Positions 1,679 to 39,244 of a stretch of DNA of 64,000 bases are shown here, one piece after another. The position numbers and the translations under genes are program-made. The DNA is from an uncultured Myxococcales bacterium (GTDB lineage Bacteria; Myxococcota_A; Polyangia; Fen-1088): the NCBI GenBank assembly GCA_937889515.1, contig CALAOV010000342.1, forward strand, positions 3,993 to 67,992, given 5' to 3'. Position 1 is the first letter of the stretch; each line of letters opens with the position of its first letter. The notes beneath the pieces are model-generated. The model did not search any database. It saw only the letters and a program-made list of their open reading frames with translations, and was not told the DNA's origin.

Positions 1679-1679
1679 G

Positions 1680-3412: not shown

Positions 3413-3444
3413 GACCGACAAGCAGTAAGACCGACAAGCAGTAA
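3397..3444 (+). repeat. 3 x 16-bp direct repeat (GACMGACAAGMAGTAA) spanning the stop codon
   Basis: aacggacaagaagtaa / gaccgacaagcagtaa / gaccgacaagcagtaa. The first copy encodes the C-terminal TDKK*; copies 2 and 3 lie in the 3'UTR and each carries a TAA. Confidence 0.7.
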
Positions 3445-3450
3445 CTCCAG

Positions 3451-3488
3451 GGCCGGGCCCGACCTCGTGTCGGCCCGGCCCTTTTCTT
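3451..3488 (+). terminator. Rho-independent terminator
   Basis: GGCCGGGCCCGAC-ctcgt-GTCGGCCCGGCC GC-rich hairpin followed by CTTTTCTT. Confidence 0.65.
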
Positions 3489-3501
3489 CGACGCCGGGCC
3501 T

Positions 3502-8270: not shown

Positions 8271-10471
8271 CAGATCTCTTCCGGACCGGGTGGTGGCCGG
8301 CGGAGGACCACCATGGAGCGGCCGCGCAGCGGCAGGCTCGCTTCCCCCGGCAGCTTGGCCGCCACCGGCGCGACCGGGCACGAGGTGTCGACCACGATCT
8401 CCCATTCGTGCCCCCAGTCGAGGTGGGGCAAGGCGAAGGTCAGCTCCTCGTGGTGCGCGTTCAGGAGCACCAGCAGGGTGTTGCCCATCGGGCGGCGTCC
8501 GGCCTTGTCCGGCACCACCAGCGTGTCACCACCCAGCAGGTAGGTCAGCGAGCGGACAAAAGGCACCTGCCAATCCTCGGCCGGCATCTCGTTGCCATCG
8601 GGCCGGAAGAAGGCCAGGTCCTTGAGCCGCGAATCCCAGATGCGGTCGCCGCGGAAGAAGTGATCCTCGCGCAAGACCCCCTCCTTTCGCCGCAGCCGCG
8701 ACAGGCGGGCGGTGAAGTCGAGCAGGGCGCGGCGGCGGTCGTCCAGGTTCCAGTCCACCCAGGAGATCTCGTTGTCCTGGCAATAGGCGTTGTTGTTTCC
8801 GCCCTGGGTCCGGCCCATCTCGTCGCCGGCCACCAGCATGGGCACGCCGCGCGACAGGAACAGCGTGCTCAGGAAGTTGCGCTTGGTGCGATCGCGCAGC
8901 TCGTTGATCCCGGCGTCGTCGGTCTCCCCCTCGACGCCGTGGTTCCAGGACCGGTTGTCGTCCGACCCGTCCCGGTTGTCGTCCTTGTTCGCTTCGTTGT
9001 GCTTGCCGTCGTAGCTGACCAGATCGTGCAAGGTGAATCCGTCGTGGCTGGTGATGAAGTTGATGCTGGCGTGAGGCCGACGTCCGCCCGCCTGAAAGAT
9101 GTCGGCCGATCCGGTCAGTCGATAACCGAGCTCGCCCGCCTGGCTCTCGTCGCCCTTCCAGAAGCGGCGCACGGCGTCCCGGTAGGCGCCGTTCCACTCC
9201 GACCACAACACCGGGAAGCCGCCCAGCTGAACGCCGTTTTCGCCGGTGTCCCACGGCTCCGCGATGAGCTTGAGCGACGACAGCGCCGGGTCCTGGTGCA
9301 CCGCCTGGAAAAACGCGGCATTCTTGTCGAAGGCGAAGGTCGGCCACATCCGACCCAGCGTGGTGGCCAGATCGAACCGGAACCCGTCGACGTGCATCTC
9401 CGTGGCCCAGTAGCGAAGGCTGTCGAGCACCAGCTTCATGGTGTAAAGGGCGCCCAGGTTCAAGCTGTTGCCGCAGCCGGTGAACTCCATGTTGTAGCGA
9501 CGGTCCTGCGGGCTGTGGTGGTAGTAGCCGATGTTGTCGAGGCCCCGAAATGAGAGCGTCGGGCCCATCTGATTGCCTTCGCCCGTGTGGTTGTAGACCA
9601 CGTCGAGGATCACTTCGATGCCGGCCGCGTGGAGCTGCTTGACCATGGTCTTGAACTCCGCGACCTGGGCCCCCGGTGTCGAGGCGCGTGCATAACGCTG
9701 CTCGGGCGCGAAGAAGGCCAGCGTGCTGTAGCCCCAATAGTTGGTCAGCCCCTTGTCGACCATGTACCCGTCGACCAACTTGGCGTGGACGGGCAGGAGC
9801 TCGATGGCGGTGATGCCCAGCTTCTGGAGGTGGGCGATGACCGCCGGATGTCCGATCGCCGCGTAGGTGCCGCGGATCTCTTCGGGCACCTCGGGATGCC
9901 GCATGGTCAGGCCGCGGACGTGCGCCTCATAGATGATGGTGTCGTTCCAGGGAACGTTCGGACGGCGATCCTCCCCCCAGTCGAAATCGTCGACCAGCAC
10001 CACCGACTTCGGGACGACGGCGGCGTCGTCCTGCTCGGAGAACGCCAGGTCGGCGTCGGGCGCGTTGGTCGGATAGCCGTAGATCGGGCCCTTGAAATCG
10101 ATGTCGCCGTGCAGGGCGCGCGCGTACGGATCGATGAGCAGCTTGTTGATGTTGAAGCGCTGCCCCTCGCTCGGCACGAAGGGACCCTCGACGCGGAATC
10201 CGTAGAGGGCGCCGACCCGGACGTCCGGAATCAGTCCGTGGAAGACCTGCGCGGTCCGTTCCAGCAGCTCGTAGCGGGCGATCTCGCGCGCCGGCTCGGC
10301 CGCATCGAAGAGACAGACGAAGGCGCGTTCCCCGTGCTCGGAGAACAGCGCGAAGTTCACGCCCCCAACCATCAAGGTGGCGCCCAGCGGGAACGGGCTG
10401 CCCGGCAGCACCGCGAAGCGAGGATCCGGAGCGGTCTCGGCGTCGGGCTCGAGAACTCTAGCGGTGGACAA
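8270..10471 (-). CDS. glgX: Glycogen debranching enzyme GlgX/TreX (GH13_11)
   Basis: FAVLPGSPFPLGATLMVGGVNFALFSEHGERAFVCLFD, YWGYSTLAFFAPEQRYA and EVILDVVYNHTGEG are GlgX signatures. Confidence 0.9.
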   Translation of the reverse strand: MSTARVLEPDAETAPDPRFAVLPGSPFPLGATLMVGGVNFALFSEHGERAFVCLFDAAEPAREIARYELLERTAQVFHGLIPDVRVGALYGFRVEGPFVPSEGQRFNINKLLIDPYARALHGDIDFKGPIYGYPTNAPDADLAFSEQDDAAVVPKSVVLVDDFDWGEDRRPNVPWNDTIIYEAHVRGLTMRHPEVPEEIRGTYAAIGHPAVIAHLQKLGITAIELLPVHAKLVDGYMVDKGLTNYWGYSTLAFFAPEQRYARASTPGAQVAEFKTMVKQLHAAGIEVILDVVYNHTGEGNQMGPTLSFRGLDNIGYYHHSPQDRRYNMEFTGCGNSLNLGALYTMKLVLDSLRYWATEMHVDGFRFDLATTLGRMWPTFAFDKNAAFFQAVHQDPALSSLKLIAEPWDTGENGVQLGGFPVLWSEWNGAYRDAVRRFWKGDESQAGELGYRLTGSADIFQAGGRRPHASINFITSHDGFTLHDLVSYDGKHNEANKDDNRDGSDDNRSWNHGVEGETDDAGINELRDRTKRNFLSTLFLSRGVPMLVAGDEMGRTQGGNNNAYCQDNEISWVDWNLDDRRRALLDFTARLSRLRRKEGVLREDHFFRGDRIWDSRLKDLAFFRPDGNEMPAEDWQVPFVRSLTYLLGGDTLVVPDKAGRRPMGNTLLVLLNAHHEELTFALPHLDWGHEWEIVVDTSCPVAPVAAKLPGEASLPLRGRSMVVLRRPPPGPEEI

Positions 10472-12542
10472 GGGGCTCTCCTATGGGTTGGGGCTCAGCG
10501 GTCAAACGCCAGGCGCGCAGCAGCTCGGCGACGCCCCAGGCCTGGGCGATGCAACCGCGCGGACGGAACGGAGCCTCGGCATCGAAGATCTCGCTCACCG
10601 AGCCGACGCAGGCCTGACCCAGGTGCGTCTGCAGGCCACGGAGAAGCTGGCGCGCGTTCGAGCGCGACTCGGGATAGACCTTCAACCAGGCATCCACGAA
10701 CGGACCGATGAGCCAGCTCCAGACGGTTCCTTGGTGGTAGGCGGCATCTCGGGTCCGCAGATCGCCGTGGTAGCTCGCCTTGAAATCTGGCTCGCCGGGC
10801 GCCAGCGATCGGAGGCCGACGGGCGTCAGCAGCGCCTCGGCGGCGCCGTCGACGATGGCACGCCAATGCACCGGATCCAGCACCGGATTCGGGAGCGAGA
10901 CGGCGAGGAGCTGATTCGGCCGGAAGGAATCGTCCTGTGCCTCGGCCGGTCCCTGAATGACGTCGAACAATCGATTCTTCGATTCGTTCCAGAACAGGCG
11001 GTTGAAAGATGCCTTCGCCGTCTCCGCCATCTGCCGATAGCGCACCGCCGACTCCGGCGATCGTTCCCCCGCCATCCACTGCCCGATCAGCGTCAGGGCG
11101 TTGAACCACAGCGCGTTGATCTCGACCGCCTTTCCGCGACGCGGCGTCACCACCCAGCCGTCGCAGAGCGCGTCCATCCAGGTCAGCGCGAACCCGTCCT
11201 GGCCCTGCCGGAGCAGGCCGTCGGCGGGGTCGACCCCGATTCCGAAGTCGGTCCCTTTGACGTGGGCGTCGATGATCTGCTCCAGCGTCGGAAGCAGCAG
11301 CCGCAGCGTCACGCGATCCGAGCTGTAGGCCAGATAGCGATCGACCGCGTGAAAGAACCAGAGGGTGGCGTCGGCCGTGTGGTACAGGCCCTCCTGCGAC
11401 CCCTCCGGGAACAGGTTGGGAATCAGCCCATTTCGCGTGTAGCGGGCGAAGCTGTGCAGGATGAAGTGGGCCGTCTGGAGGCGCCCCGTGCAGAGGGTCA
11501 GCCCTTCGAGGCTGATCATCGTGTCCCGTCCCCAGTCGGTGAACCAGTGGTATCCCGCGATGACCGATCGCAGCTCCTCGCCCTGCGCGCGCGCCCGGGC
11601 GGCGTCCTCGGTACGTCCCGCCGGCGCGATCACGAATTGGTCGGCGGCCAGCACCAGCTCGGCGGTCGTGAGGTCCTGGTCGGCCCCGGGGGCGATGTGC
11701 AAAAGGCGCGTGCGACGGTCGTTTTCATAGCGCCAGGCCCGATCGGGATCGATGGCACCCATCGTCTCCCAGGTCTCGGCGGAGGCCACCAGCGTGACCG
11801 GTGTGGCGCGCGTCAGCGTGACCTTGAACTGCCCGGGGCTCCAGAGCGTGCCGTGCGCTTCGTAGCCGCGATCCGCCTCCCAGCGGTAGTTGACCCTCTC
11901 TTGTCGTTCCGGAAAGAACTCGAAGGTCGGGCTCTGGCCGTCGACCTGGATCTTCAGGGATGGCAGGAGGGATCCGGTCGACACCTCGAATCGGTTGCCT
12001 GTCAGCGACAAGGTGTACGGATCGAAGGGGCGGGAGACCGGAGCGTCGTGGGGGCGAAAATGCATCGCCGGGCGCAACGACATCGCGATCCCCGGATGCG
12101 CCCTGTCCGTGCCCGGCGCATCCAGCAGGCTGTACCTCAGATAGACCGTATTCTGGCAGTAGGCGAGCACGATCCGCTTCTCGATGACCACGTTATCCAA
12201 CCGGTAGGTCCAGATCGGCAGCCCCATCTCCAGCCGAAACTCCTCGAGGTGCTCGGTTCCGTGCATCGCGGTTCCGGCGTCGGTCTCCTCGGCGCTGAGC
12301 CGGCGCGCGGAGCCGTCGGGGAGCCGAAGGTGCTCGACCAGGTGGTCCAGCATCATCGTGCGCCCGAAGGGGTTGGGCAGCGCCGCCACCAGCAGGCCGT
12401 GGTAGCGACGCCGGACCATGCCGGCCAGGGTGCCGGAGGCATAACCCCCGAGGCCGTTGGTCACCAACCACTCGCGGTCGACCAGGGCTTCGTTCGCATT
12501 TGGCTCGTCGCTCTGCCAGCCGACGCGAGAGACCTGAATCAT
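10458..12542 (-). CDS. Amylo-alpha-1,6-glucosidase, bacterial GDE-like (GDE_N_bis + GDE_C)
   Basis: N-terminal REWLVTNGLGGYASGTLAGMVRRRYHGLL is typical of bacterial glycogen-debranching-enzyme-like proteins. It overlaps the glgX start by 14 nt. Confidence 0.8.
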   Translation of the reverse strand: MIQVSRVGWQSDEPNANEALVDREWLVTNGLGGYASGTLAGMVRRRYHGLLVAALPNPFGRTMMLDHLVEHLRLPDGSARRLSAEETDAGTAMHGTEHLEEFRLEMGLPIWTYRLDNVVIEKRIVLAYCQNTVYLRYSLLDAPGTDRAHPGIAMSLRPAMHFRPHDAPVSRPFDPYTLSLTGNRFEVSTGSLLPSLKIQVDGQSPTFEFFPERQERVNYRWEADRGYEAHGTLWSPGQFKVTLTRATPVTLVASAETWETMGAIDPDRAWRYENDRRTRLLHIAPGADQDLTTAELVLAADQFVIAPAGRTEDAARARAQGEELRSVIAGYHWFTDWGRDTMISLEGLTLCTGRLQTAHFILHSFARYTRNGLIPNLFPEGSQEGLYHTADATLWFFHAVDRYLAYSSDRVTLRLLLPTLEQIIDAHVKGTDFGIGVDPADGLLRQGQDGFALTWMDALCDGWVVTPRRGKAVEINALWFNALTLIGQWMAGERSPESAVRYRQMAETAKASFNRLFWNESKNRLFDVIQGPAEAQDDSFRPNQLLAVSLPNPVLDPVHWRAIVDGAAEALLTPVGLRSLAPGEPDFKASYHGDLRTRDAAYHQGTVWSWLIGPFVDAWLKVYPESRSNARQLLRGLQTHLGQACVGSVSEIFDAEAPFRPRGCIAQAWGVAELLRAWRLTAEPQPIGEPLVHR

Positions 12543-27648: not shown

Positions 27649-27789
27649 GACAGCCGTCACCGTAGGTGGCTCCGCGCAACGATCGTTTTGCGGAGACGAC
27701 ACCACGCTGGCACACGCCGGGTGGTACAGCGGTTCTGCGCTCATTGGGCGCGCAGAGCATTTGCACGACATGCACGAAAGGACTCATTC

Positions 27790-29805
27790 ATGCGCAAACG
27801 ACTTGGCCTTCGGATCTTCACAGCAACATCGATGCTCGCCGGCTGTATGTCGGGGAGTGGCGCTCCGGCACCAGATTCGACCTCGGTCGATGTGGACCTC
27901 GCGGCGGGTTCTACCTTCGCGGGAAGCGGGGACAATCAAACCCAGTCGCCGATCAAACACGTCATCGTCATCCTCGGCGAGAATCGTTCGTTCGACCACG
28001 TCTTCGCGACGTATCAGGCCAAACACGGTCAGCACGTCGACAATCTTCTCTCCAAGGGGATCGTCAACGCGGACGGAACGCCGGGACCAAACTTTGGTCT
28101 CGCCACCCAGTTTTCAGCGGTGGACTCGAACCCGTCGGGCACCTCGCCCCCGCTGGCGGATCCGCTGCCGCCGGGATTCCAGGTCAGCCCGGGGGAAAAG
28201 ACGCCCTACACCAAGCTCCCGCCGCCGGCCGCCGGCGGCCCCGCCGTGCCCTTCATTTCGTCGGTTCCGGTGGCCCAGGCCTTCGAAAATGGCCTCGAGC
28301 CCCAGGACGCAGTGCTGCTCACTACCGGCGGCACGGGAATCGCGCCCCTAGACGTCCCGGATACCCGCATTCCGTTCGTCAACGACCTTCCGCCCGGCCC
28401 CTTCCAGTTGACCCCGGGGGTTCCGTACGACGCCTACGCGGCGAGCCCCGTCCATCGCTATTATGAAGCGTGGCAACAGCTCGACTGCAACGTTCTCTAC
28501 GCGACGGCGGCCAACCCCTCCGGTTGCCTGAATGACCTGTTCTCGTGGGTCGAGGTCAGCATGGGGGCCGGCAACAATGGCCTGCCGCAACCCGTCGGCT
28601 TCAACGACCTTTCGACCAACGAGGGTTCTACCGCGCTGGCCTTCTATAACGTCCAGCAGGGCGACGTTCCCTACTTCACGTCGATCGCGAACACCTATGC
28701 GATGAGCGACAACTATCACCAGGCCGCCCTGGGCGGCACGGGCGCCAACCACGTCATCCTCGGTACGGGCGACGAGGTCTACTACAGCGACGGGAACGGC
28801 ACCGCGGCGACACCCCCGGCGGCCGAGATCGAGAACCCGAACCCGCAGCCCGGGACGAACAACTGGTATACGGAAGACGGGTACGGGACCACGGACGCCA
28901 GTGGTAATCCCGTCGGAGGCGGCTCCTACAGCGACTGCTCGGACTCCGACCAGCCCGGTGTGGGCTCGGTCCTCGGCTACCTCGCGTCGCTCCCCTACGA
29001 GGTCGACCCGAAGTGCGTTCCCGGTCACTACTTCCTGCTCAACAACTATGCGCCGGGGTACTTCGGCGACGGCTCGGTCAATACCGGTGCCGTCAATGCC
29101 TTCACCGTTCCGCCCTCGATGATCCCGACCATCGGCGACCAGCTCCGCGCCAAGGACGTCTCGTTCGCCTACTTCGGCGACCAGTTTAGCCGGTATGTCC
29201 AGGACCCGAACTACACCAACCCTGCCAACACCTATTGCGACATCTGCAACTTCTTCCAGTACAGCAGCCGGATCATGACCAACACCGCGGCCCGCCAGGC
29301 GCACCTCAAGGACACGACCGACCTTTACGCGGGCATCGCGGCCGGCCAGCTGCCGGCCGTCTCGTTCGTCAAGCCGAGCGGCGCCGTCGACGGACACCCG
29401 GCTTCGTCGAAGCTCGACCTCTTCGAGGCCTTCACCAAGAAGATTGTAGATCTGGTTCAAAGCCAACCGAACCTCTGGAAGGACACGGCCATCCTGGTGA
29501 CCTTCGACGAAGCCGGCGGCTACTACGATTCCGGGTACGTGCAGCCGGTCGACTTCTTCGGCGACGGCAGCCGCGTTCCCATGCTCGTCGTGTCGCCGCT
29601 GGCGACCGGCGGCCGGATCTCACACGACTATTCGGATCACGTTTCGATCCTGAAGTTCATCAATCGCAACTGGAGCCTGTCTCCGGTATCCAAGCGCAGC
29701 CGGGACAACCTTCCCAATCCGACGCACGACAGCTCGAACCCGTACGTGCCAACGAACTCGCCGGCGATCGGCGATCTCTTCGACCTGTTCAATTTCGCGC
29801 ACTGA
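27790..29805 (+). CDS. Phosphoesterase family lipoprotein (PF04185; non-haemolytic phospholipase C / AcpA acid phosphatase-like)
   Basis: Lipoprotein signal MRKRLGLRIFTATSMLAGC|MSG. Hallmark N-terminal motif SPIKHVIVILGENRSFDHVFATY. Confidence 0.8.
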   Translation: MRKRLGLRIFTATSMLAGCMSGSGAPAPDSTSVDVDLAAGSTFAGSGDNQTQSPIKHVIVILGENRSFDHVFATYQAKHGQHVDNLLSKGIVNADGTPGPNFGLATQFSAVDSNPSGTSPPLADPLPPGFQVSPGEKTPYTKLPPPAAGGPAVPFISSVPVAQAFENGLEPQDAVLLTTGGTGIAPLDVPDTRIPFVNDLPPGPFQLTPGVPYDAYAASPVHRYYEAWQQLDCNVLYATAANPSGCLNDLFSWVEVSMGAGNNGLPQPVGFNDLSTNEGSTALAFYNVQQGDVPYFTSIANTYAMSDNYHQAALGGTGANHVILGTGDEVYYSDGNGTAATPPAAEIENPNPQPGTNNWYTEDGYGTTDASGNPVGGGSYSDCSDSDQPGVGSVLGYLASLPYEVDPKCVPGHYFLLNNYAPGYFGDGSVNTGAVNAFTVPPSMIPTIGDQLRAKDVSFAYFGDQFSRYVQDPNYTNPANTYCDICNFFQYSSRIMTNTAARQAHLKDTTDLYAGIAAGQLPAVSFVKPSGAVDGHPASSKLDLFEAFTKKIVDLVQSQPNLWKDTAILVTFDEAGGYYDSGYVQPVDFFGDGSRVPMLVVSPLATGGRISHDYSDHVSILKFINRNWSLSPVSKRSRDNLPNPTHDSSNPYVPTNSPAIGDLFDLFNFAH

Positions 29806-29944
29806 GCCGAACGACCCAAAGCACCGGCACCTCCCCACCACCTGTTCCGCCGCGGCCGAATATTCCGCCCGCGAGGGCGGTCGGGGGGTGGGGGCTCCTC
29901 TTTCTGGAGACGACGCCTCCCCACCCGTATTGTCTCCAGGCGGT

Positions 29945-30985
29945 ATGCCCGAGCTTCACAAACCTGTCGCCCCCTGGTGGCTTCCTGGGGCGCATCTGCA
30001 GACGCTTTGGGCGCGGCTTGCGCGTTCGCGACGCCTCATCACGTTCGAGCGCGAGGTCCTCACGACGTCGGACGACGACGACCTGATGCTCGACCATGCG
30101 GCCGGGCCGGCGGGCTCGCCACGGGTGCTCTTGCTCCACGGCCTGGAGGGCAGTGCGCACTCGCTCCACACCCAGGGCCTGGCCGTGCTGGTGGCCCGCG
30201 GGGGATGGCGCAGCACCGTCCTCAACTTTCGTTCCTGCGCGCGGGATCCCCTCGACATCAAGCGCCGACTCCAGAACCGTCGGCCGCGGCTCTATCATTC
30301 GGGCGAGACCGGCGATCTGGACCTGGTCGTGCGCACGCTGGCCGCGCGCGAGCCGGAGGTGCCTCTCTACGCGATCGGCTTTTCGCTGGGCGGCAACGTC
30401 CTTCTGAAGTGGCTCGGCGAGGCAGGCAGCGAGAGCTTCATCCGCGCCGCCGCCACCATCTCGGTGCCCTACGATCTCGCGGAGGCGGCCCACTACCTCG
30501 AGCGGCCGGTCGGCCGGATCTATGCCGCCCACTTCCTCAGAAGGCTCAAACCCAAGGCCCTCGATCTGATCGCGCGCTTTCCGAAGGAGACCCCCTTCCT
30601 CGATCCCGAACGCATCCGTCTGGCCCGAACCTTCGGCGAGTTCGACCAGTGCGTCACCGCGCCTCTCTATGGGTTCCGCAGCGCCGACGACTACTACCGG
30701 CACTCGAGCGCGCTCGGGTATCTCCCGCGCATCCGGATCCCCACCCTCTGCATTACCGCCGAGGACGATCCCTTCTTTCCCGCCGCCGCGGTGGCCCCCG
30801 CGCGGGCCGCGGCGTCGGAGGAGGTTCGGTTTGCGGTCTCGACCTGGGGCGGACACACCGGATTCGTGGCCGGACGCTGGCCCTGGAGCCCCCAGTACTG
30901 GGCGGAGGACGAGGCTGTCGCCTGGTTGGCGCAGCAAGCCGGCGCCGCCGGATCTCGAGCCGCCGCGGAACCGCGCGCCCCGTAA
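29945..30985 (+). CDS. Alpha/beta-fold hydrolase, YheT/COG0429-type
   Basis: RVLLLHGLEGSAHS. Nucleophile elbow AIGFSLGGN. Typical length. Confidence 0.8.
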   Translation: MPELHKPVAPWWLPGAHLQTLWARLARSRRLITFEREVLTTSDDDDLMLDHAAGPAGSPRVLLLHGLEGSAHSLHTQGLAVLVARGGWRSTVLNFRSCARDPLDIKRRLQNRRPRLYHSGETGDLDLVVRTLAAREPEVPLYAIGFSLGGNVLLKWLGEAGSESFIRAAATISVPYDLAEAAHYLERPVGRIYAAHFLRRLKPKALDLIARFPKETPFLDPERIRLARTFGEFDQCVTAPLYGFRSADDYYRHSSALGYLPRIRIPTLCITAEDDPFFPAAAVAPARAAASEEVRFAVSTWGGHTGFVAGRWPWSPQYWAEDEAVAWLAQQAGAAGSRAAAEPRAP

Positions 30986-31042: not shown

Positions 31043-31915
31043 TTGTTGCCGCCGGACCACAACGTGCGCACACTCGCCGCGGTGCCGGAGACTACTTCGA
31101 CGGGGATCGCCGTTTGGACCACTTTCCTAGCGGTCGTCAGCGCGTTCAACATCTGCGCCTGGTTCCTGGTGGCCGCGCGGCTGGTCCGCAGCAAGTCCTC
31201 TGTGAGCCCGGCTCTCTACGCCGTCCGCAGCCGGCAATTGGTCCTCTCCGCCCTGTTCGTTGCGGGGTGCGCCTTCCGATCCATCTGGCCGAGGGCCGAC
31301 GTTCAGCGAATCTGCTTTCACGATTCCTGGCTGTCCAGCGTGGCGGTGGGACGCTCGGTCGCCTCGGTGGCAGAGATGGCCTTCATCGCGCAATGGGCCG
31401 TCTTGCTGCGCCAGGCCGCCCCCGGCGCGAACGCGTACGCGGGGGCGGTGACACGCATCTCCCGACTTCTGGTTCCCCTCATCGTCATCGCCGAGCTTTT
31501 TTCTTGGTATGCGGTGCTGACCACCAACTACTTCGGCAACGTCCTCGAGGAGTCGACCTGGACCATCGCCTCGGCCCTGGTTTTGGTGGCCTTCCTGATG
31601 CTCTGGTTCCAGCTCAAAGGCAGGCTACGGACGTTCATGCGAACGTCGCTGTTTCTCCTGGGAGCCTATTTCGTGTTCATGTGCGCCATCGAGGTGCCCA
31701 TGTACGTGTCGCGCCACCGGGTGGACACCCTGAACGGCCGGCCGTATCTGACGCTTCGGCAGGGCCTGCTCGACTCCGCGCTTCGGCGGGTGGTTACCCG
31801 CAGCTGGGACGACTGGAACGGCGAGATCCCTTGGATGTCGCTCTACTTCAGCACCGGGGTCTGGGTGAGCCTCTCCCTGGTCGGCGCGCCCATGCGGCAA
31901 GCGGAGGCGTCGTGA
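31043..31915 (+). CDS. Hypothetical 7-TM integral membrane protein
   Basis: Seven hydrophobic segments. TTG/GTG start uncertain. Confidence 0.45.
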   Translation: MLPPDHNVRTLAAVPETTSTGIAVWTTFLAVVSAFNICAWFLVAARLVRSKSSVSPALYAVRSRQLVLSALFVAGCAFRSIWPRADVQRICFHDSWLSSVAVGRSVASVAEMAFIAQWAVLLRQAAPGANAYAGAVTRISRLLVPLIVIAELFSWYAVLTTNYFGNVLEESTWTIASALVLVAFLMLWFQLKGRLRTFMRTSLFLLGAYFVFMCAIEVPMYVSRHRVDTLNGRPYLTLRQGLLDSALRRVVTRSWDDWNGEIPWMSLYFSTGVWVSLSLVGAPMRQAEAS

Positions 31916-31996: not shown

Positions 31997-32602
31997 ATGC
32001 GAGGATTCTTCGACGCCCTCTCCGAGCAACGCTGGGATGACCATCGCTACTATCACCACAGCCGCATCAATCAGTCGCTACACCTGGTGAGCGCGATCAG
32101 TTTCGTCGTCACCTACGTGCTGCTGTTCACGCACCCGGTGGTGGCGGCGCTCTTCGGCTGGACCTTCGCGATGTGCATCCGCCAGGTCGGACATTTTTTC
32201 TTCGAGCCCAAGGGCTACGACGACGCCAATCAGGCCACACACGAGTACAAGGAGAAGGTCAAAGTTGGCTACAACCTACGGCGCAAGGTCATCCTGCACG
32301 CCGTCTGGGGGCTGACGCCCCTCTTGCTCTATATCCAGCCGACCTTCTTCGGTGTCTTCAAGGCGCCCTACGTCGGCCTGACCGGCTACCTGCAGGACCT
32401 GTCGCAGATCTGGATCGCGCTGGCTGCGGGCGCGCTGCTGTTTCGAACCATCCACCTCTTCTTCCTGCGGGACGTGAAGACAGGCCTGGTCTGGTTCACC
32501 AAGATCCTCACCGACCCGTTCCACGACATCATGCTGTACCACAAGGCGCCGCTCTATCTTCTGCGCGGCGAGCTCGTCGAGCCGTCGAAGCAGACCGCCT
32601 AG
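31997..32602 (+). CDS. Membrane protein, DUF962/Mpo1-like (tentative)
   Basis: SD AGGAGA 6 nt upstream of the ATG. The N-terminus MRGFFDALSEQRWDDHRYYHHSRINQSLHLVSAISFVVTYVLLF follows the DUF962 pattern (His/Asn-containing N-terminus, then TM helices). Confidence 0.55.
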   Translation: MRGFFDALSEQRWDDHRYYHHSRINQSLHLVSAISFVVTYVLLFTHPVVAALFGWTFAMCIRQVGHFFFEPKGYDDANQATHEYKEKVKVGYNLRRKVILHAVWGLTPLLLYIQPTFFGVFKAPYVGLTGYLQDLSQIWIALAAGALLFRTIHLFFLRDVKTGLVWFTKILTDPFHDIMLYHKAPLYLLRGELVEPSKQTA

Positions 32603-34299
32603 GGCGCAAACCCGGATTGACCGGATTGGCCGGCTTGATCGGATCGGCGCGATCGCATGGACCAAGCCGACAGCATCTCGCGCACGATCCGGCGCCTGAT
32701 CGACCTGTTGCTCAACGCCGCCTCGGTCCACCAGAACCCGTCCTGTTGCATCGCGCGGGCGGCCGCCACGAACTTGTTTGCGACGGCCTCGAAATCGGCG
32801 TCCGTATAGTTGAGGCTGAAGATGAGGCGACCGGTTCCCACCCAGCTCAAGGCCAACCCCTCGGCCCGCAGATAAAATTGAAGCATCCAATTGTAGCGCG
32901 AGGGCTGCGTGTAATAGACGGTCCAGATGGACGACAGATTCGCCACCCGGACCGGCAGCCCCTCATCGACCAAACGCCGATTGAGCTGTTCCGCCCGCCC
33001 GTTCCAGCGCGTATCGAGGCCCTGGTAAAGACCGCGAATCTCCGGGGTCTCGAGCGCCAACAAGAATTCGTGCATCGCCCCCATCACGTATGGATGCGAG
33101 TTGAAAGTGCCGCGCGCGAAGCAGATGTCGGCCGGCCGGTCGTCGCGGAATCGCTTCATGAGCTGCCGGCGACCGCACAGGACGCCGACCGGCAGCCCGC
33201 CACCCAGGGTCTTGCCGTAGGTGACCAGGTCGGCCCGCACGCCGAAGTATTCCTGGGCGCCCCCGGGGGCCAGCCGAAACCCCACGAACACCTCGTCGAA
33301 GATGAGCGGGATCTCGCGCTCGGTGCAGACCGCGCGCAGCTTCTCGAGCCATTCCGTATAGGCCACCCGGTCGAAGCGCGCGCTTCGACCGCTGTCGACC
33401 AGCATCGAATCGCTGGGGGCATTCGCGTTCGGATGCATGGCCTGCAGCGGATTCACCAGCACGCAGGCGATGTCGCGCCGCCTCTGCAAGACCCGCAACG
33501 AACGGTCGTCCATGTCCTTCAGGGTGAACGTCTCGTGCGCCGGCGAGGGGTTGCCGACGCCGGGCTGAACGTCGCCCCACCAACCGTGGTACGCGCCGCA
33601 GAAACGCACCAGGCGGGAACGCCCGGTGTGGTAGCGCGCCAGGCGCACCGCCTGCATGATCGCCTCGGTGCCCGACATGTGAAACGACACCTCGTCGAGC
33701 CCCGAGATCGCCTGCAGCCGCCGGACGTTCTCGGCGACCAGCGGGTGATAGGCGCCCAGGACCGGTCCCAGCGCCCGGACCCGTTCACTTCCCCGCTCCA
33801 GGCACCCTTTGTAAAAGTCCTGACCGAAGACGTTGACGCCGTAGGCGCCGGTCAAGTCGAAGAGCTCGTTTCCGTCCAGGTCGGTGAGCTGGACGCCCGC
33901 CGACGAGCGAACGAACGAGCCGGCCGACAGGTGCTGGCGCACGAAGCGGCTGTACTGGAACGGCACCCGGTAGTGACTGGTGAACTGCAGGTCGGAAAGG
34001 CCGCCTTCGACCTCCCGGGTCAGCGCGACGGTCTTGGCGAAACGGTCGCGGTAGAGATCCGCCAGGCGCATGAACCCGGCTCGACGGCGGTCGGCGACCG
34101 CGGTCGGGGCGTCGTCGGAGCGGAAGAAACGGGCCTCGTCGTATTCGTAGTAGGGGACCAGCGCCGCGAACCAGCGCGAGATCCGGGAGTGGCCGCGCAA
34201 GGAGGGGTGTTTGGCCCGCGACAGCGCGAGGCGGCTTGTCATCCGGGGCAACGACGCCGTCAGCGCCACCGCGCCCAGCGCGTAAAGGACCGCAGTCAT
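32599..34299 (-). CDS. Class-III (PLP-dependent) aminotransferase with ~130-aa N-terminal hydrophobic extension
   Basis: HMSGTEAIMQAVRLARYHTGR, IFDEVFVGFR and YGKTLGGGLPVGVLCGR (PLP-lysine) are typical of GSA-aminomutase-like class-III aminotransferases. The N-terminal MTAVLYALGAVALTASL is hydrophobic. Confidence 0.8.
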   Translation of the reverse strand: MTAVLYALGAVALTASLPRMTSRLALSRAKHPSLRGHSRISRWFAALVPYYEYDEARFFRSDDAPTAVADRRRAGFMRLADLYRDRFAKTVALTREVEGGLSDLQFTSHYRVPFQYSRFVRQHLSAGSFVRSSAGVQLTDLDGNELFDLTGAYGVNVFGQDFYKGCLERGSERVRALGPVLGAYHPLVAENVRRLQAISGLDEVSFHMSGTEAIMQAVRLARYHTGRSRLVRFCGAYHGWWGDVQPGVGNPSPAHETFTLKDMDDRSLRVLQRRRDIACVLVNPLQAMHPNANAPSDSMLVDSGRSARFDRVAYTEWLEKLRAVCTEREIPLIFDEVFVGFRLAPGGAQEYFGVRADLVTYGKTLGGGLPVGVLCGRRQLMKRFRDDRPADICFARGTFNSHPYVMGAMHEFLLALETPEIRGLYQGLDTRWNGRAEQLNRRLVDEGLPVRVANLSSIWTVYYTQPSRYNWMLQFYLRAEGLALSWVGTGRLIFSLNYTDADFEAVANKFVAAARAMQQDGFWWTEAALSNRSIRRRIVREMLSAWSMRSRRSDQAGQSGQSGFAP

Positions 34300-34319
34300 G
34301 ACGTCCCCTTTATAACGCC

Positions 34320-35195
34320 ATGAGCATCCAATCCATTCGATCCGTTCTGGCCCGGTTCGCCCAGCAGGAGGATTTCAATTTTCTGCTCACCAACCGCCTT
34401 CCGCGGCGGCTGGCCACCCAGTTCATGGGGCGGTTCGGCAAGATCGAGCATCCGCTGGTCCGCGATCTGTCGATCGCCATCTGGCGGCTCTTCGCCAGTC
34501 CCGACCTGGAGGAGGCGGCCGAGAGCGAGTTCGCCAGCCTGCACGACTGTTTCATCCGCGCGCTCAAACCCGGCGCCCGCCCGATCGATCCGGATCCGGC
34601 CGTGCTGGTCAGCCCCTGCGACGCGATCGTGGGCGCCTCCGGCCGGATCGAGGGAACCGAGCTGCTGCAGGCCAAGGGCTTCCCCTATACGCTCCAGGAT
34701 CTGCTGGGCGATCCCGCGCTGATTGACCTGTACCACAACGGTCGCTACGTCACCTTGCGGCTCACCTCCAGCATGTATCATCGCTTTCACGCGCCGCACG
34801 ATTGCCGGGTCGAGCAGGTGGCCTATTTTTCGGGCGACACCTGGAACACCAACCCCATTGCGATCCACCGGGTCGAGAAGCTGTTCTGCAAGAACGAGCG
34901 GGCCGTCGTGCGGACCACCTTGGCCGCGGGCGGTCACACCATCACCCTGGTGCCCGTCGCATCGATCCTGGTCGCCAGCATTCGATTGCACTTTCTCGAC
35001 GTCCTCCTCCACCTCGAATATGCCGGGCCGCGGTTCATCGCCTGCGATGCCCCGTTCCGCAAGGGCCAGGAGATGGGCTGGTTCGAGCTCGGTTCGACCA
35101 TCATTGTCTTCGCCCCCGATGGATTTTCACTCTGTCCGGACGTCCGGCCCGGCACCACCATTCGCATGGGCCAGCCCCTGCTGCGGTTGCCCTGA
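34320..35195 (+). CDS. psd: Phosphatidylserine decarboxylase proenzyme
   Basis: YVTLRLTSSMYHRFHAPHDCRV and the C-terminal autocleavage motif GWFELGSTIIVF (LGST). Confidence 0.85.
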   Translation: MSIQSIRSVLARFAQQEDFNFLLTNRLPRRLATQFMGRFGKIEHPLVRDLSIAIWRLFASPDLEEAAESEFASLHDCFIRALKPGARPIDPDPAVLVSPCDAIVGASGRIEGTELLQAKGFPYTLQDLLGDPALIDLYHNGRYVTLRLTSSMYHRFHAPHDCRVEQVAYFSGDTWNTNPIAIHRVEKLFCKNERAVVRTTLAAGGHTITLVPVASILVASIRLHFLDVLLHLEYAGPRFIACDAPFRKGQEMGWFELGSTIIVFAPDGFSLCPDVRPGTTIRMGQPLLRLP

Positions 35196-35201
35196 GCGCC
35201 C

Positions 35202-36347
35202 TCAGAACGCCGGGACCGCTTGGGGAAGCACGAAGGGCGTCTCGGGCCGCCAGGGCACGAGATGCGCGCGAAACACGTCGTGGCCCGTCCGCAAGGTCCG
35301 GCGGACGATGCTCGCCCGCGACCGCTCGCGCGAGCAGTGAACGGCCCGCAGGCACGCCTCGAATAGGTTGTCGTCGAGCGCTCCATTGACGCCTTCCTCG
35401 ATCAGATCGATCGGGCCCGGCGCCGGCACCGAAGCCACCGGCAACCCAGAAGCGAGCGCTTCCAGGATCACGTTCCCGAACGTTTCGGTGCGTGAGGGAA
35501 AGACGAAGCAGTCGGCGCTGGCGAAGTGTGCCGACAGGTCCTCTCCGAAGCGGTACCCGCGCCACACGACGTCCGGGAAGCCACGCTGCAGCTGCTCCCG
35601 GGCGGGGCCATCCCCGACGACCACCTTGGTTCCCGGCAGCGGCAGCTTCAGAAAATCCTCCAGGCTCTTCTCGACGGCCACCCGGCCCACGTAGAGCCAG
35701 ATCGGTCCCGGGAGGGCATAGACGTCTTCGCGCCGGCGGTCGGGGTGAAAGCAGTCCGCGTCGACGCCACGGGGCCAGTGAATCAACCGGCGCCCGACCC
35801 GCCTGCCCTCCAGCTCCCGGAGCAGCGACATAGAGCTGACCAGGGTGTGCTCGGCCCGCCGGTGAAACCACCTCACCAGCTGGTATCCCCATTCGAGCGG
35901 CACCGGCGCCCGCGCGCTCAGATACTCCGGATAGCGGGTGTGGAAGCTGGTGGTGAAACGCAGCCCACGGTAGCGGAGCCAGGCGATCGTAGAAAACCCG
36001 AGGGGCCCCTCGGTGGCGACGTGGACCGCGTCGGGCTCGAACGCGCGGATCCGATCGATGGCTTTCCAGGGGTCGCAAGCCACGCGGATCTCGGGATACG
36101 ACGGACAGGGAATCGTGAGGTGGGCATCCGGCGACAGGACCAGCACCTCGACGCCCTGGGCTTCGAGATACTTCACCAGACGCACCAAGGTCTTGACCAC
36201 CCCGTTGGTCTGGGGCAACCAGGCGTCGGTCACCAGAGCCAACCTTCGCAACGTCGAGCCACCTCCACCGAGACGGCGGGCGTTGCGCCGCGCCCGGCCC
36301 GCGGGTGGTTCCCCAACCTCCTCGTATATCGGCTGTGCGAGTGCCAT
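35202..36347 (-). CDS. Glycosyltransferase family 4 (GT-B fold)
   Basis: LRRLALVTDAWLPQTNGVVKTLVRL and C-terminal ETFGNVILEALASGLPV (E-x7-E region). Confidence 0.8.
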   Translation of the reverse strand: MALAQPIYEEVGEPPAGRARRNARRLGGGGSTLRRLALVTDAWLPQTNGVVKTLVRLVKYLEAQGVEVLVLSPDAHLTIPCPSYPEIRVACDPWKAIDRIRAFEPDAVHVATEGPLGFSTIAWLRYRGLRFTTSFHTRYPEYLSARAPVPLEWGYQLVRWFHRRAEHTLVSSMSLLRELEGRRVGRRLIHWPRGVDADCFHPDRRREDVYALPGPIWLYVGRVAVEKSLEDFLKLPLPGTKVVVGDGPAREQLQRGFPDVVWRGYRFGEDLSAHFASADCFVFPSRTETFGNVILEALASGLPVASVPAPGPIDLIEEGVNGALDDNLFEACLRAVHCSRERSRASIVRRTLRTGHDVFRAHLVPWRPETPFVLPQAVPAF

Positions 36348-36748
36348 CGCTTACGTTCATAGGTACTCCTTCCATTCGTCGATCGCTCCAACGAGACGTC
36401 AACGACTCGGTGAAGGATTGCGCCGTTATCAATCGAATGTGAGTCGATTGTTACGAACGTGCAATCAACGGCGGCGTCGGGCCCGAAAATACGGGCGCAA
36501 TGCCCCCGCGCCGCCAGCAGCATCACCGACCAGTTAGCGCAACCGTGATCGATCCTGCCTGGCCGTGGCCCGCGAAGAGCTGCCCGGGGAGACCGATCGT
36601 CGGCCCCGCCACGTAGCCCTGGCCGCCAGCAACAAAACGTTGCGACAATGATACGTAGCAGTTTCGCGCCGATTTTCGGAACGCGGTATCAAGGAGAGAG
36701 AAATGTTCGGCGCGAACGAGGTGCGACCTAGCCGGCGTCCCCCCGTCG

Positions 36749-37882
36749 TTGGTGCCACCGTTGGATGAAAGCATCCTGGCCGATACGGCGGCGCCCGCCG
36801 CAGACGCGGGTACGCCTCCCACCGCCACGCGCCCGCGGCGGCTGATCCCGCTTTTGCGTTTCGGGCTCGCAGCGGCGGCCCTCTTCGCGCTCACCCGGCT
36901 CATTCATCCGGCCGACATTGCCCACGCCAAGGCCCTGGTCGCACGGGTCGGCTGGCCGCTGGCGCTGGTTCTGCTGCCGACGTTGTTCACCATGGCGATG
37001 GACGCGGCTGGCTGGCGCCTCATCCTCGCCGTTCTGGGTCGGCCCGTCCCCTGGCGCCGGATGCTGGAGCTCCGGCTCTCGGTCGAAGCCGTGGGGCTCG
37101 CGCTGCCGGGGGGATCGGTCGCCGCGGAGGCGATCAAGCTGGCGCTCCTCGACCGACGGCTCGGTGTCCCCATCGCCCCGGGCGGCGCCAGCCTGGCGCT
37201 GGGCAAGGCCTATCTCATCGGCGCCGAGGCCATCTACCTGGCGGTGGCGGCGGTCTGGTTGCTGCTCGGCCGGGGGACCGAGACCGGACAGACATCCGCG
37301 GCAGCCGGACCGGCGCTGGCAGCGGCGGGCGGCGCCCTTGTGACCACCCTGATCTCCGGGACGCTCCTGATTGCCCTCAGGCAGGCCACCTGGGTGAGCC
37401 GAATTGCGCGCGCGTTGATGGCGCTGCCGAGCGCGCCCTTGCGGCGCTGGATCGAAAGCCGCCAGAGCGGGATTCGCGCACTCGAGGGCGCGGCGCGCGA
37501 ATTTTTTCGGGCTTCGTTTGCGCGCCGGCTGCGCTGCTTCATTCCGTTCCTGTTCGAGTGGGTGGCCGAAGCCGTCGAGACCTGGCTCATCCTGCGCTGC
37601 CTCGCCGTCCCCTTGGGCCTGGGCGGAATCCTGGGCCTCGATGCGATCGGATCGCTGTTGCGGGCGCTGGTCTTCTTTCTGCCGGCCGGACTCGGCGTAC
37701 AGGACGCCGCCCAGGTGCTGGTGTTGAGCGCCCTCGGCGTTCCGGACGCGGTGGCGGTCGGTGCCGCCTTCATCTTCGTCAAACGATCGAAGGAGATCTT
37801 CTGGATCGCGGCGGGGGCGTTGTTCTTGGCGGTCCGAAGGGACCTGTGGCAGCGGACCGCCGACCAGCGCCCGGTGGTTTGA
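36749..37882 (+). CDS. Lysylphosphatidylglycerol-synthase TM-domain (UPF0104/flippase-like) membrane protein
   Basis: Multi-TM protein with the pattern RLIPLLRFGLAAAALFALTRL...LALVLLPTLFTMAMDAAGWRLIL...EAIKLALL, typical of the PF03706 flippase-like domain. No aminoacyl-transferase domain. The start is ambiguous (TTG 36749 or GTG 36752; see the out-of-frame SD+ATG at 36703). Confidence 0.65.
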   Translation: MVPPLDESILADTAAPAADAGTPPTATRPRRLIPLLRFGLAAAALFALTRLIHPADIAHAKALVARVGWPLALVLLPTLFTMAMDAAGWRLILAVLGRPVPWRRMLELRLSVEAVGLALPGGSVAAEAIKLALLDRRLGVPIAPGGASLALGKAYLIGAEAIYLAVAAVWLLLGRGTETGQTSAAAGPALAAAGGALVTTLISGTLLIALRQATWVSRIARALMALPSAPLRRWIESRQSGIRALEGAAREFFRASFARRLRCFIPFLFEWVAEAVETWLILRCLAVPLGLGGILGLDAIGSLLRALVFFLPAGLGVQDAAQVLVLSALGVPDAVAVGAAFIFVKRSKEIFWIAAGALFLAVRRDLWQRTADQRPVV

Positions 37883-37984: not shown

Positions 37985-39244
37985 ATGGAGATGCGCGTTA
38001 CCCACCGAGGCCTTCTGTCGTCGATCTGGCTGATCTTGCCGGGCCTGCTGGCACCGGCAGCCGGTCGCGCCGCACCGGAGCTGCTGCTGGCACCCCGAAG
38101 CCCGTCGGCCAGCGTGGCGCAGACAGTCGGCATCACGACCATCACGGTCGACTACAACAGCCCCGCGGTGGCGGGTCGAGCGATCTGGGAAGCCGTCGCG
38201 CCGCCCGGGGTCCCCTGGCGACCGGGCGAAGGCCCGGTTCCCAAGATCACCTTCAGTCGCGACGTGGTGTTCGCGGGCACCGCCGTCTCCGCGGGCAGTT
38301 ATGCCCTGCTCGCGATTCCCTCGGCGACCGATTGGATCGTCATCCTGAACCGGGACACCCAGCTGACCGCCATGGCCGACTACCGCCCCACCCGGGACGT
38401 CGTGCGCGGCGTCGCCCCGGTGCAGCCGGTGCCGCACCGGGAACGGTTGACCTTCCTGTTCGCCGACTTCTCCGACGAGGAAGCATCCCTCGCTCTCGAA
38501 TGGGGCGACCGTCGAATCTGCATTCCGATCCGGGTCCACACCACCGAGCAGATCGAGAGCGCCATCCAGGCGCTGGACGACGGGTGGCGCTGGTACGCGG
38601 ACGCGGCGGTTTACTCGCTCGAGACCAAGAAGGACTACGAGGGCGGTCTGCGGTTCATCGACAAGTCGCTGGTCCTCACGGAGAACTGGCAAAATCTCTG
38701 GATCAAGGCGTCTCTGCTGGCGGCGACGGGAAACTACCCGGAAGCGCACCAGGCGGCCGATCGCGCCTATCAGATGGGTCGAAAAGAGGGCAACGCCTTC
38801 ACCATCGAATCGAAGGTGCAAGCGGCGCTGGCCTCGTGGAACCGTCCGGCCATCGGCGACCCGCCCGCGCCCTCGCCGCCGGAGCTGACGGACACAGCCC
38901 TCCCCGAGCGTCCGGTCCAGGTGCACGGATCGAACCGCTCGACGGCACTGCTCAGGGCCCCCAGAGCGGCGGAGATCGGCCCGCGCATCAAGAGAGGCAG
39001 GCCGGAGCTCCAGACCTGCTATCAGCGCGCGCTCCGGCAGGACCCGACGCTGACCCGCGGGCGAATCGCCGTCTCCGTCGACATCGGCACTTCGGGGATC
39101 GTCAAGAAGGTGGTTCTCGATCCTCCGCATGTCTCGGGTGGGCTCGATGGATGCATCACGGACACGGTCTCGCGCTGGGTGTTTCCGCTCTCGCCGGTGG
39201 AGTACGCCGCCGAGTTTCCCGTCGTGCTGCGCGGCAAGGACTAG
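37985..39244 (+). CDS. Secreted protein: N-terminal DUF2911-like beta domain + TPR-like region + C-terminal AgmX/PglI-like Cys-containing domain (tentative)
   Basis: Signal peptide. VGITTITVDYNSPAVAGRAIWEAVAPPGVPWRPGE resembles DUF2911. The C-terminus ELQTCYQRALRQDPTLTRGRIAVSVDIGTSGIVKKVVL...GCITDTV has the conserved Cys pair of a myxobacterial C-terminal domain. Confidence 0.5.
   Translation: MEMRVTHRGLLSSIWLILPGLLAPAAGRAAPELLLAPRSPSASVAQTVGITTITVDYNSPAVAGRAIWEAVAPPGVPWRPGEGPVPKITFSRDVVFAGTAVSAGSYALLAIPSATDWIVILNRDTQLTAMADYRPTRDVVRGVAPVQPVPHRERLTFLFADFSDEEASLALEWGDRRICIPIRVHTTEQIESAIQALDDGWRWYADAAVYSLETKKDYEGGLRFIDKSLVLTENWQNLWIKASLLAATGNYPEAHQAADRAYQMGRKEGNAFTIESKVQAALASWNRPAIGDPPAPSPPELTDTALPERPVQVHGSNRSTALLRAPRAAEIGPRIKRGRPELQTCYQRALRQDPTLTRGRIAVSVDIGTSGIVKKVVLDPPHVSGGLDGCITDTVSRWVFPLSPVEYAAEFPVVLRGKD

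Follow-up and report, generated by a model that had tools for sequence, protein, structure and literature searches.

The 64,000-nucleotide stretch of contig CALAOV010000342.1 analysed here (the window), from an uncultured Myxococcales bacterium, carries a gene module that is conserved in hundreds of bacterial species from soil and fresh water and that includes a class-III aminotransferase (AT) gene and, divergent from it, a phosphatidylserine decarboxylase (PSD) gene, psd. On balance, we read the locus as a phosphate-limitation lipid-remodelling module that would build an amine head group by oxidation, transamination and decarboxylation, and that probably makes an undescribed amine-bearing membrane lipid. 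The module genes are inherited together, in some cases as fusions and in others within a single operon, and their products are predicted to be membrane or interface proteins with intact catalytic motifs. Full-text literature searches returned no published description of the module, and no curated family describing it was found.

Window genes were taken from the open reading frame (ORF) listing and from Pfam and NCBIfam family scans. A first-pass annotation had singled out four genes (AT, psd, a GT4 glycosyltransferase gene and an LPG_synthase_TM flippase-like gene), all of which lie exactly at the positions it gave. The genes, the short spacer between AT and psd and the N-terminal extension of AT have all stood, a hydrophobic stretch of ~130 residues in that extension has not, and the Mpo1-like gene beside AT, omitted from its gene list, was overlooked. 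The strands alternate among the window genes, and the features on which the argument turns are as follows.

31997-32602, forward strand: Mpo1/DUF962-like His-rich membrane protein, 201 aa (PF06127, 22.1 bits)
32599-34299, reverse strand: class-III pyridoxal phosphate (PLP) aminotransferase (AT), 566 aa (PF00202, 98.3 bits)
34300-34319, no strand: divergent AT/psd spacer, 20 nt (read from the sequence)
34320-35195, forward strand: psd, a long-type PSD paralogue, pyruvoyl enzyme, 291 aa (PF02666, 187.6 bits)
35202-36347, reverse strand: GT4 glycosyltransferase of the lipid-glycosyltransferase type, 381-aa ORF (PF13439, PF13692, PF00534)
36749-37882, forward strand: LPG_synthase_TM (MprF-flippase/HpnL-like) membrane protein (PF03706, 81.8 bits)

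The region has a G+C content of ~67%, its nearest genome relatives are Polyangia and Myxococcales metagenome-assembled genomes, and the same genes are present on a 20-kb public metagenome contig. Relatives of AT were found in at least 582 of ~185,000 species-representative genomes, and the carriers include Alpha-, Beta- and Gammaproteobacteria, Polyangia, Holophagales, Chthoniobacterales and Dormibacterota. Synteny was counted in the best 80 species loci drawn from these genomes. Alongside AT (80 loci), a Mpo1-like gene adjoins it in convergent orientation in 78, psd lies divergently next to it in 77 (the three absences fall at contig ends), a GT4 gene is nearby in 59 (33-81% identity), a gene for a PmtA-like methyltransferase is present in 37 and an LPG_synthase_TM gene in 15. 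Among 64 loci sampled independently from metagenomes, for the most part of peat and soil, a frequent layout was PSD leftward, AT rightward, then Mpo1-like, methyltransferase and GT4 genes leftward and LPG_synthase_TM rightward; an annotated Sphingomonas chromid has asd leftward, AT rightward, and a hypothetical and a methyltransferase gene leftward. The concern that the four genes would not be syntenic elsewhere is thus not borne out, and the counts support a functional link among AT, psd and GT4. The four-gene block as first drawn does not survive whole, the flippase-like gene, with its 15 of 80 loci, falling outside the core.

The most faithful, obligate partner of AT is the Mpo1-like gene. 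A search of 1.84 billion representative proteins revealed AT relatives with a Mpo1-like domain fused to their C-terminus (P0127, P0164, P0185 and P0186); the fusion of the Methylomirabilota forms a 78-member cluster at 90% identity, and fusions occur in other lineages too. By BLASTP, the window Mpo1-like protein matches the fusion C-termini with E-values of 5e-18 and 3e-13 (the latter P0185), a full-length homology, and the fused domain of P0185 scores 38.6 bits with PF06127, above the gathering cut-off of 24 bits that the window protein just fails to reach. Its conserved motifs (H-x3-HH...NQ..H, RQxGHFFFEP and TDPFHD) keep their His, Glu and Asp residues in 52 sequences. In locus L094, the order Mpo1-like, AT, PSD, glycosyltransferase forms a co-directional operon of overlapping genes, with an AT that is 33% identical to ours. 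Locus L092 (Logan SRR32818062, positions 529-12368, from an A+T-rich organism) has a run of acyl-ACP synthetase/ACP/PlsC-type acyltransferase (ACP, acyl carrier protein), HAD phosphatase, GpsA, AT-Mpo1 fusion, flavin adenine dinucleotide (FAD) enzyme, PSD and second FAD enzyme, with a GT4 gene on the opposite strand; both FAD enzymes are FAD_binding_4 oxidases, and the one directly after the fusion resembles DprE1 and sugar-1,4-lactone oxidase. The cluster has the appearance of a self-contained pathway that leads from glycerol-3-phosphate to some modified lipid. In Methylomirabilota, a two-gene operon consists of GT4 followed by the AT-Mpo1 fusion. Because of these fusions and operons, we take the functional core to be the Mpo1-like protein, AT, PSD and the glycosyltransferase. 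In the window itself, the Mpo1-like gene is convergent with AT, their 3' ends overlapping by 4 nt (32599-32602), and as no intrinsic-terminator-like site was found between them, their transcription may interfere.

The AT is a class-III (fold-type I) PLP aminotransferase by its Pfam score (gathering cut-off 30.5), its PLP lysine (K363, within YGKTLGGG) and its pyridine-nitrogen aspartate (D335, in the FDEV motif at 334); among aligned relatives (alignment A2), D335 never varies and K363 is kept in at least 90%. The family is large, with at least 8000 candidates at E <= 1e-10, the best 120 of which are 75-85% identical, and homologues with 68-85% identity occur across phyla. No NCBIfam equivalog covers AT or the Mpo1-like protein. 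Public annotation labels AT 'glutamate-1-semialdehyde 2,1-aminomutase' (GSAM; HemL), an identity that we rejected, both HemL models scoring far under their cut-offs (TIGR00713, 167.3 bits vs 527.3; NF000818, 171.4 vs 398). The nearest solved structure is the AMT domain of the mycosubtilin synthase MycA (6kfm, E 1e-46, vs ~1e-36 for the best GSAM), which is also the best fold match (TM-score 0.84), placing AT in an AMT/GSAM-like clade and, by these comparisons, nearer to the AMT domain than to HemL. The MycA AMT domain aminates a long-chain beta-keto acyl intermediate. We also set aside the possibility that AT is itself an AMT domain of a polyketide synthase/non-ribosomal peptide synthetase (PKS/NRPS): it is a stand-alone protein of 566 aa with no megasynthase context, and a scan of the window genes at 27.7-39.2 kb found no carrier protein or ketosynthase domain.

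The N-terminal extension of AT, which the first-pass annotation had described as hydrophobic over ~130 residues, is real, and its hydrophobic part is confined to residues 1-17 (Kyte-Doolittle 1.8 over 17 residues); no 19-residue window of the extension reaches a hydropathy of 1.6, and residues 19-127, with 20 K+R and 11 D+E, are basic and amphipathic. The start is not mis-called, since 12 homologues of 75-85% identity align to AT from residue 1-2. Even at 32-54% identity, relatives can be aligned from about residue 17-50, and R72 and D103 are conserved in at least 90% of them. An AlphaFold2 model built on a 34-sequence alignment including these distant relatives (predicted local distance difference test score, pLDDT, 87.8; predicted template-modelling score, pTM, 0.87) has a long helix at residues 2-29 followed by a helical subdomain (37-123) packed against the PLP core; a model from the 12-sequence alignment of 75-85% identity was discarded (pLDDT 40). 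The resulting layout is an anchor at residues 1-17, a helical subdomain at ~37-125 and a PLP core at 128-517, so that most of the extension is predicted to be a soluble helical subdomain. The first-pass view of a membrane-tethered transaminase agrees with the hydrophobic residues 1-17, and as almost all AT relatives, eukaryotic ones included, share one or more transmembrane-like segments just ahead of the catalytic region, tethering appears to be a trait of the whole family. Long multi-transmembrane N-terminal regions were observed in P0134 (Euglena mutabilis, 1189 aa) and in P0129, P0133, P0138 and P0160, the non-Euglena ones being eukaryote-like. P0134 combines a weak GT2-like region, transmembrane segments and AT in one protein, and P0133 and P0134 have in common an N-terminal domain without a family.

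The product of psd was correctly recognised at first pass as a phosphatidylserine decarboxylase with an LGST autocleavage motif. It scores above the cut-offs of TIGR00163 (162.1 bits vs 111.75) and PF02666 (cut-off 22), matches E. coli Psd (7cnw) at E 7e-28 and carries LGST at residues 257-260, so that score, cleavage motif and D-H-S triad all agree with the family. All 53 module PSDs compared keep the equivalents of D90, H144, H147 and S254, and in every one the phosphate-contacting Tyr137 of E. coli Psd is replaced by Arg and Asp142 by Met. Arg occupies the Tyr137 position in 15% of PSDs (PMC7952604). As the catalytic residues are invariant and an Arg stands at the phosphate contact, the module PSD should be active and bind an anionic group beside the serine moiety. 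The module PSDs, 57-75% identical to one another, make up a conserved clade of their own. Locus L081 has a second, short PSD ~7 kb from the module copy, and L040 likewise has a short-type PSD match near the module; because of these second copies, the module PSD is, by all appearances, a dedicated paralogue in the L081 and L040 genomes. In L081 (16099-17522) and L040 (Burkholderiales), a Methyltransf_24 gene is followed by the short-type PSD, a small lipid pair a few kb from the module.

These observations bear on whether the locus is simply a chance neighbourhood, in which AT would be a tetrapyrrole-type HemL paralogue, psd a housekeeping gene, and the GT4 and flippase-like genes unrelated envelope genes. 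The public label of AT and the alternating strands of the window would fit such a reading. We nonetheless regard it as very improbable: the match of AT to HemL models (167-171 bits) stays far under their cut-offs (398-527), the protein carries an extra subdomain besides a conserved membrane anchor, and a second PSD is found in the same locus in L081. Most directly, it is contradicted by the synteny in 77-78 of 80 species across several phyla and by the fusions and operons.

The GT4 protein has a public gene call of 346 aa, with a later start than the 381-aa ORF, and its true start may be near 36242. Its best NCBIfam matches are lipid glycosyltransferases, namely N-acetylglucosaminyl-phosphatidylglycerol (GlcNAc-PG) synthase and monoglucosyl-diacylglycerol synthase (Mgs), all under their cut-offs of 400-480; with the GlcNAc-PG synthase model, the window GT4 scores 51 bits and its L086 and L081 relatives 131-134 bits. 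This kinship agrees with an alternative in which the amine is placed on a sugar. GT4 would make an Agt-type glycosyl- or glucuronosyl-diacylglycerol, the Mpo1-like protein (or the DprE1-like oxidase of L092) would make a ketone and AT an amino sugar, yielding a cationic or zwitterionic phosphorus-free glycolipid while PSD and the methyltransferase adjust phosphatidylethanolamine (PE) and phosphatidylcholine (PC) in parallel. An oxidase paired with an aminotransferase is the usual route to amino sugars, as in ArnA/ArnB and GnnA/GnnB, the L092 FAD enzyme directly follows the AT-Mpo1 fusion, and the Methylomirabilota operon has GT4 and the fusion with no PSD. We consider this alternative unlikely, as it gives no role to the near-universal PSD, which is within the operon in L092 and L094; moreover, sugar aminotransferases are normally of the DegT type and not class III, and the known Mpo1 substrates are 2-hydroxy acids, not sugars.

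The LPG_synthase_TM protein was described at first pass as a flippase domain that lacks the aminoacyl-transferase half, and this is what we found: it matches PF03706, and the bifunctional MprF model NF033480 gives 21.8 bits against a cut-off of 600. The HpnL model gives 83 bits against 196, and a hopanoid link through HpnL was dropped, with the match below cut-off and no hpn genes in the annotated neighbourhoods. Of the 80 genome loci, 15 have a gene of this family near the module, as do 18 of the 64 metagenome loci, and in each case it is divergent from GT4. In the 80 genome loci, tblastn gave no match to the window LPG_synthase_TM protein itself, nor to the phospholipase C (PLC)-family lipoprotein and DUF2911 protein encoded nearby in the window. 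The LPG_synthase_TM gene is hence best described as accessory and not as a core member; its assignment to the module draws on family-level recurrence, and that of the PLC gene would follow from position alone. The start of the LPG_synthase_TM protein is ambiguous (377 vs 373 aa). The spacer between it and GT4 is ~400-520 nt in the window, a range given because both start codons are ambiguous, compared with 47-110 nt in alphaproteobacterial loci. Among other recurrent neighbours, the best NCBIfam match of the methyltransferase is the phospholipid N-methyltransferase PmtA (136 bits, full length), and an LpxH/PlcP-like metallophosphoesterase gene adjoins GT4 in ~10 of 80 loci.

Several features of the module loci, all absent from the first-pass annotation, point to phosphate: Pho-box-like promoters, a pst/phn neighbourhood and PlcP-like neighbours. 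The spacers between psd and AT are short in homologous loci as well (median projected length 41 nt). Those of 73 loci, spanning several classes of Proteobacteria, were aligned with the psd start codon as the sole anchor and displayed GTCAT-N6-TGT(A/C)A with 11-bp phasing, in which G, T and A are each present in 57-60 of 73, and TA at +24/+25 in 58 of 73. The spacing of this repeat to the -10 element presumably matches that of E. coli phoA. A PHO box consists of two 11-nt direct repeats with the core CTGTCAT (PMC4415409), and we took as the criterion for the Pho regulon a PHO box that precedes a -10 element by ~10 nt. Of 79 spacers, 29 reached a two-hexamer score of 10/12 or more, compared with 1.1% of control windows. 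The GT4-LPG_synthase_TM spacer contains xxTCAT-N5-TGTAAC reading toward GT4, with a score of at least 9 in 15 of 28 loci compared with 4.9% of controls. In Proteobacteria, the promoters of AT and of the GT4-methyltransferase-Mpo1 operon thus have the putative anatomy of PhoB-dependent promoters. Consistent with this, the Methylomirabilota GT4>AT-Mpo1 operon lies between pstSCAB with a PhoU-sized gene and phnCDE-phnGHIJKLM, with ppk nearby, and in Burkholderiales the Mpo1-like gene is co-directional with metallophosphoesterase, GT4 and DedA genes, with PPK2 and Ppx nearby. From its sequence context, the module looks phosphate-starvation controlled.

As the first half-site, GTCAT, overlaps the psd start codon, a regulator activating AT there would sit on the psd start, and opposite regulation of the two genes is a possibility. 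In the psd-AT spacers of L004-L080, GTCAT reads as ATGAC on the psd strand, and positions 34300-34319 of the window have no equivalent. The AT and psd start codons of the window, at 34299 and 34320, are separated by the 20-nt spacer gacgtcccctttataacgcc, exactly as first reported, AT-richness included (A+T 45% vs ~33% for the window). Within the spacer are a TTATAA palindrome and a sequence, AAGGGGA, that resembles a Shine-Dalgarno site and stands 5-11 nt ahead of the AT ATG on the AT strand. As the latter takes up the spacer, transcription of AT should begin no nearer than the psd start codon, and for AT the earlier proposal of a promoter inside the opposite gene is reasonable. A sigma-70 consensus scan of the window at 27.2-38.2 kb yielded nothing above shuffled expectation. 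Because the window's own spacer cannot hold the Pho-box layout, phosphate control in this organism can be read only from context, that is, from the PLC-family lipoprotein gene heading the co-directional run that ends with the Mpo1-like gene.

A phosphate-starvation setting would also suit head-group salvage, in which PSD converts phosphatidylserine (PS) to PE, an AT-like deaminase or phospho-lyase acts on PE or phosphoethanolamine, PlcP or PLC frees diacylglycerol (DAG) and GT4 turns it into a glycolipid. The PlcP-like or PLC neighbours and the anion-binding Arg at the phosphate contact of module PSDs agree with such a scheme, and the class-III fold includes ethanolamine-phosphate phospho-lyase. 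However, it leaves the Mpo1-like partner fused to AT, the PmtA-like methyltransferase and the flippase-like protein without a role, and AT is nearest to AMT, GSAM and beta-transaminases, not to AGXT2-like lyases. We therefore think salvage quite improbable.

The reading that we prefer, stepwise construction of an amine head group, assigns to each recurrent gene the typical chemistry of its family. The substrates of Mpo1 are 2-hydroxy acids (from the Pfam description of PF06127). Under phosphate limitation, the Mpo1-like protein, as a membrane metallo-oxygenase, would oxidise a lipid-bound head group of the 2-hydroxy-acid type to a 2-oxo acid, which AT would convert to a lipid-bound alpha-amino acid, a serine-like head group. 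The PSD paralogue would decarboxylate this to a primary amine, giving a PE-like lipid, a step that fits the chemistry of its family, which acts on a membrane-bound alpha-amino acid. In many lineages the PmtA-like enzyme would then N-methylate the amine. GT4, Agt-like, would supply the glycolipid scaffold or a companion anionic glycolipid, and the LPG_synthase_TM protein, where present, would flip the amine lipid outward across the membrane to the outer leaflet. As scaffold, either a phosphatidyl unit (such as a phosphatidylglycerol, PG, head group) or a phosphorus-free DAG or glycosyl unit is conceivable. As products, we make no claim for the betaine lipids diacylglyceryl hydroxymethyltrimethyl-beta-alanine (DGTA) and diacylglyceryl carboxyhydroxymethylcholine (DGCC), fatty amines, glycolipids of the 4-amino-4-deoxy-L-arabinose (Ara4N) type or serinol lipids, since no evidence separates them. 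The fullest version of the scheme, a new route in which a serine-like head group is built on the lipid by oxidation and transamination and is then decarboxylated and methylated to an amine- or choline-type lipid, is tentative, and we would call it possible rather than likely. The first-pass suggestion of a non-canonical amino- or glyco-lipid is therefore upheld in part: it is still the best reading of the locus, and the flippase-like gene that it placed with the others is taken as an accessory.

A number of points weigh against this interpretation. The proposed chemistry is read from family membership only, and no gene for the attachment of a hydroxy-acid head group stands out. AMT domains use beta-keto thioesters as substrates, not 2-oxo acids; yeast Mpo1 decarboxylates its substrate and does not stop at a keto acid; and the window Mpo1-like protein has a Pfam score below cut-off. 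The Arg that replaces Tyr137 would fit ordinary PS as well as any anionic serine-type analogue. No PSD is adjacent to the Methylomirabilota GT4>AT-Mpo1 operon, and the GT4s of separate lineages, only 25-48% identical, may not be orthologous. PssA was considered as a module partner and rejected as a recurrent neighbour, since it was seen in a single locus, in its copies L081-L083, apart from a weak and partial match in L023. As for regulation, the 20-nt spacer of the window is too short for the Pho-box layout, myxobacterial phosphate regulators may differ, and the direct repeat could belong to another OmpR-family regulator.

Four further genes flank the core in the window.

27790-29805, forward strand: PLC/acid-phosphatase-family lipoprotein (PF04185, 176 bits), first of the co-directional run ending with the Mpo1-like gene
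29888-30985, forward strand: YheT-like alpha/beta hydrolase (PF00561; PRK10985, 233 bits vs a cut-off of 267)
31043-31915, forward strand: 290-aa multi-pass membrane protein of no family, directly upstream of the Mpo1-like gene
37985-39244: DUF2911 protein, directly downstream of the flippase-like gene

The PLC-family lipoprotein has the lipobox LAGC after MRKRLGLRIF..., has a public gene call of 671 aa and is matched below cut-off by acid phosphatase and PC-PLC models; the ORF as listed (27688-29805) starts 34 codons upstream of the lipoprotein signal (MRKRLGLRIFTATSMLAGC). The YheT-like hydrolase, also present in the Polyangia loci L001, L003 and L014, is a possible lipase/esterase accessory. 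The 31043-31915 protein has 4-6 hydrophobic segments and no Pfam or NCBIfam match, and its homologues in Polyangia (L001, L002, L003 and L014) and Burkholderiales (L019, L023 and L081) make it a possible lineage-specific accessory; that of L081, 289 aa long, is encoded next to psd. In the DUF2911 protein, a TPR-like stretch is accompanied by a C-terminal AgmX/PglI tail of the myxobacterial gliding-motility type.

Phosphate limitation shapes soil and freshwater microbial communities, and to our knowledge few lipid-remodelling pathways have been described, namely PlcP-Agt glycolipids, the betaine lipid diacylglyceryl trimethylhomoserine (DGTS) and ornithine lipids. If our reading is right, many soil bacteria would have a phosphate-starvation surrogate of PE or PC, or a phosphate-neutral conversion of head groups to PE or PC, by a route independent of the DGTS, ornithine-lipid and PlcP-Agt systems. 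Protein identities of 68-85% across classes and phyla suggest strong constraint and horizontal spread. We know of no earlier description that brings together an AMT-like transaminase, a Mpo1-like oxygenase and a PSD paralogue. Knowing the product might reveal a new class of lipid or a new logic of head-group biosynthesis, and would assign a function to bacterial DUF962 proteins and mend the widespread 'HemL' mis-annotation. Carriers exist in culture, among them Variovorax sp. OV329, Bradyrhizobium embrapense SEMIA 6208, Sphingomonas parapaucimobilis YK209, an Acidisphaera sp. and Muricoccus radiodurans, and the function of the module is therefore directly testable.

Each component has a known counterpart from which it departs. 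AT shares with HemL the class-III fold and the GFR...YGKxxGGGxP PLP-lysine region, and differs in having ~100 extra N-terminal residues, a membrane anchor and synteny with lipid genes instead of a tetrapyrrole context. The AMT domain of MycA (6kfm, 6kfu) is its best sequence and fold match and aminates a keto group on a long-chain lipid intermediate, as AT is proposed to do on a lipid. That domain, however, is part of a PKS/NRPS megasynthase, where its substrate is an ACP-tethered beta-keto thioester, whereas AT is stand-alone, membrane-anchored and without a nearby carrier protein, and only ~27% identical. Yeast Mpo1, a 2-hydroxy fatty acid dioxygenase, resembles the Mpo1-like protein as a small His-rich multi-pass membrane protein, and the Pfam match spans the N-terminal His motifs; the similarity is borderline (22.1 vs 24 bits), the reaction here may stop at the keto product, and we know of no Mpo1 that is paired with or fused to an aminotransferase. 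With E. coli Psd, the module PSD shares the LGST site, the D90/H144/H147/S254 equivalents and membership of a monotopic membrane enzyme family, from which it is set apart by its separate clade, the Tyr137 to Arg and Asp142 to Met replacements and, in L081, coexistence with a second PSD. The LPG_synthase_TM protein belongs to the same transmembrane family (PF03706) as HpnL and the flippase domain of MprF, which flips the amine-bearing lysyl-PG; in contrast to these, it has no aminoacyl-PG synthase domain, falls below both cut-offs, has no hopanoid genes in annotated neighbourhoods and is accessory.

The closest known system as a whole is PlcP-Agt remodelling, known from SAR11, Sinorhizobium, Pseudomonas aeruginosa and Methylosinus. 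It comprises two enzymes only, makes glucosyl- or glucuronosyl-diacylglycerol and is not known to include an aminotransferase, a Mpo1-like protein, a PSD paralogue or an N-methyltransferase; the window GT4 is likened to Agt by type only. The module would have in common with it regulation of the Pho type and the replacement of phospholipids, and in some loci it has a GT4 glycosyltransferase of the putative lipid type beside an LpxH-like metallophosphoesterase. We class the module as a putative variant of phosphate-starvation lipid remodelling.

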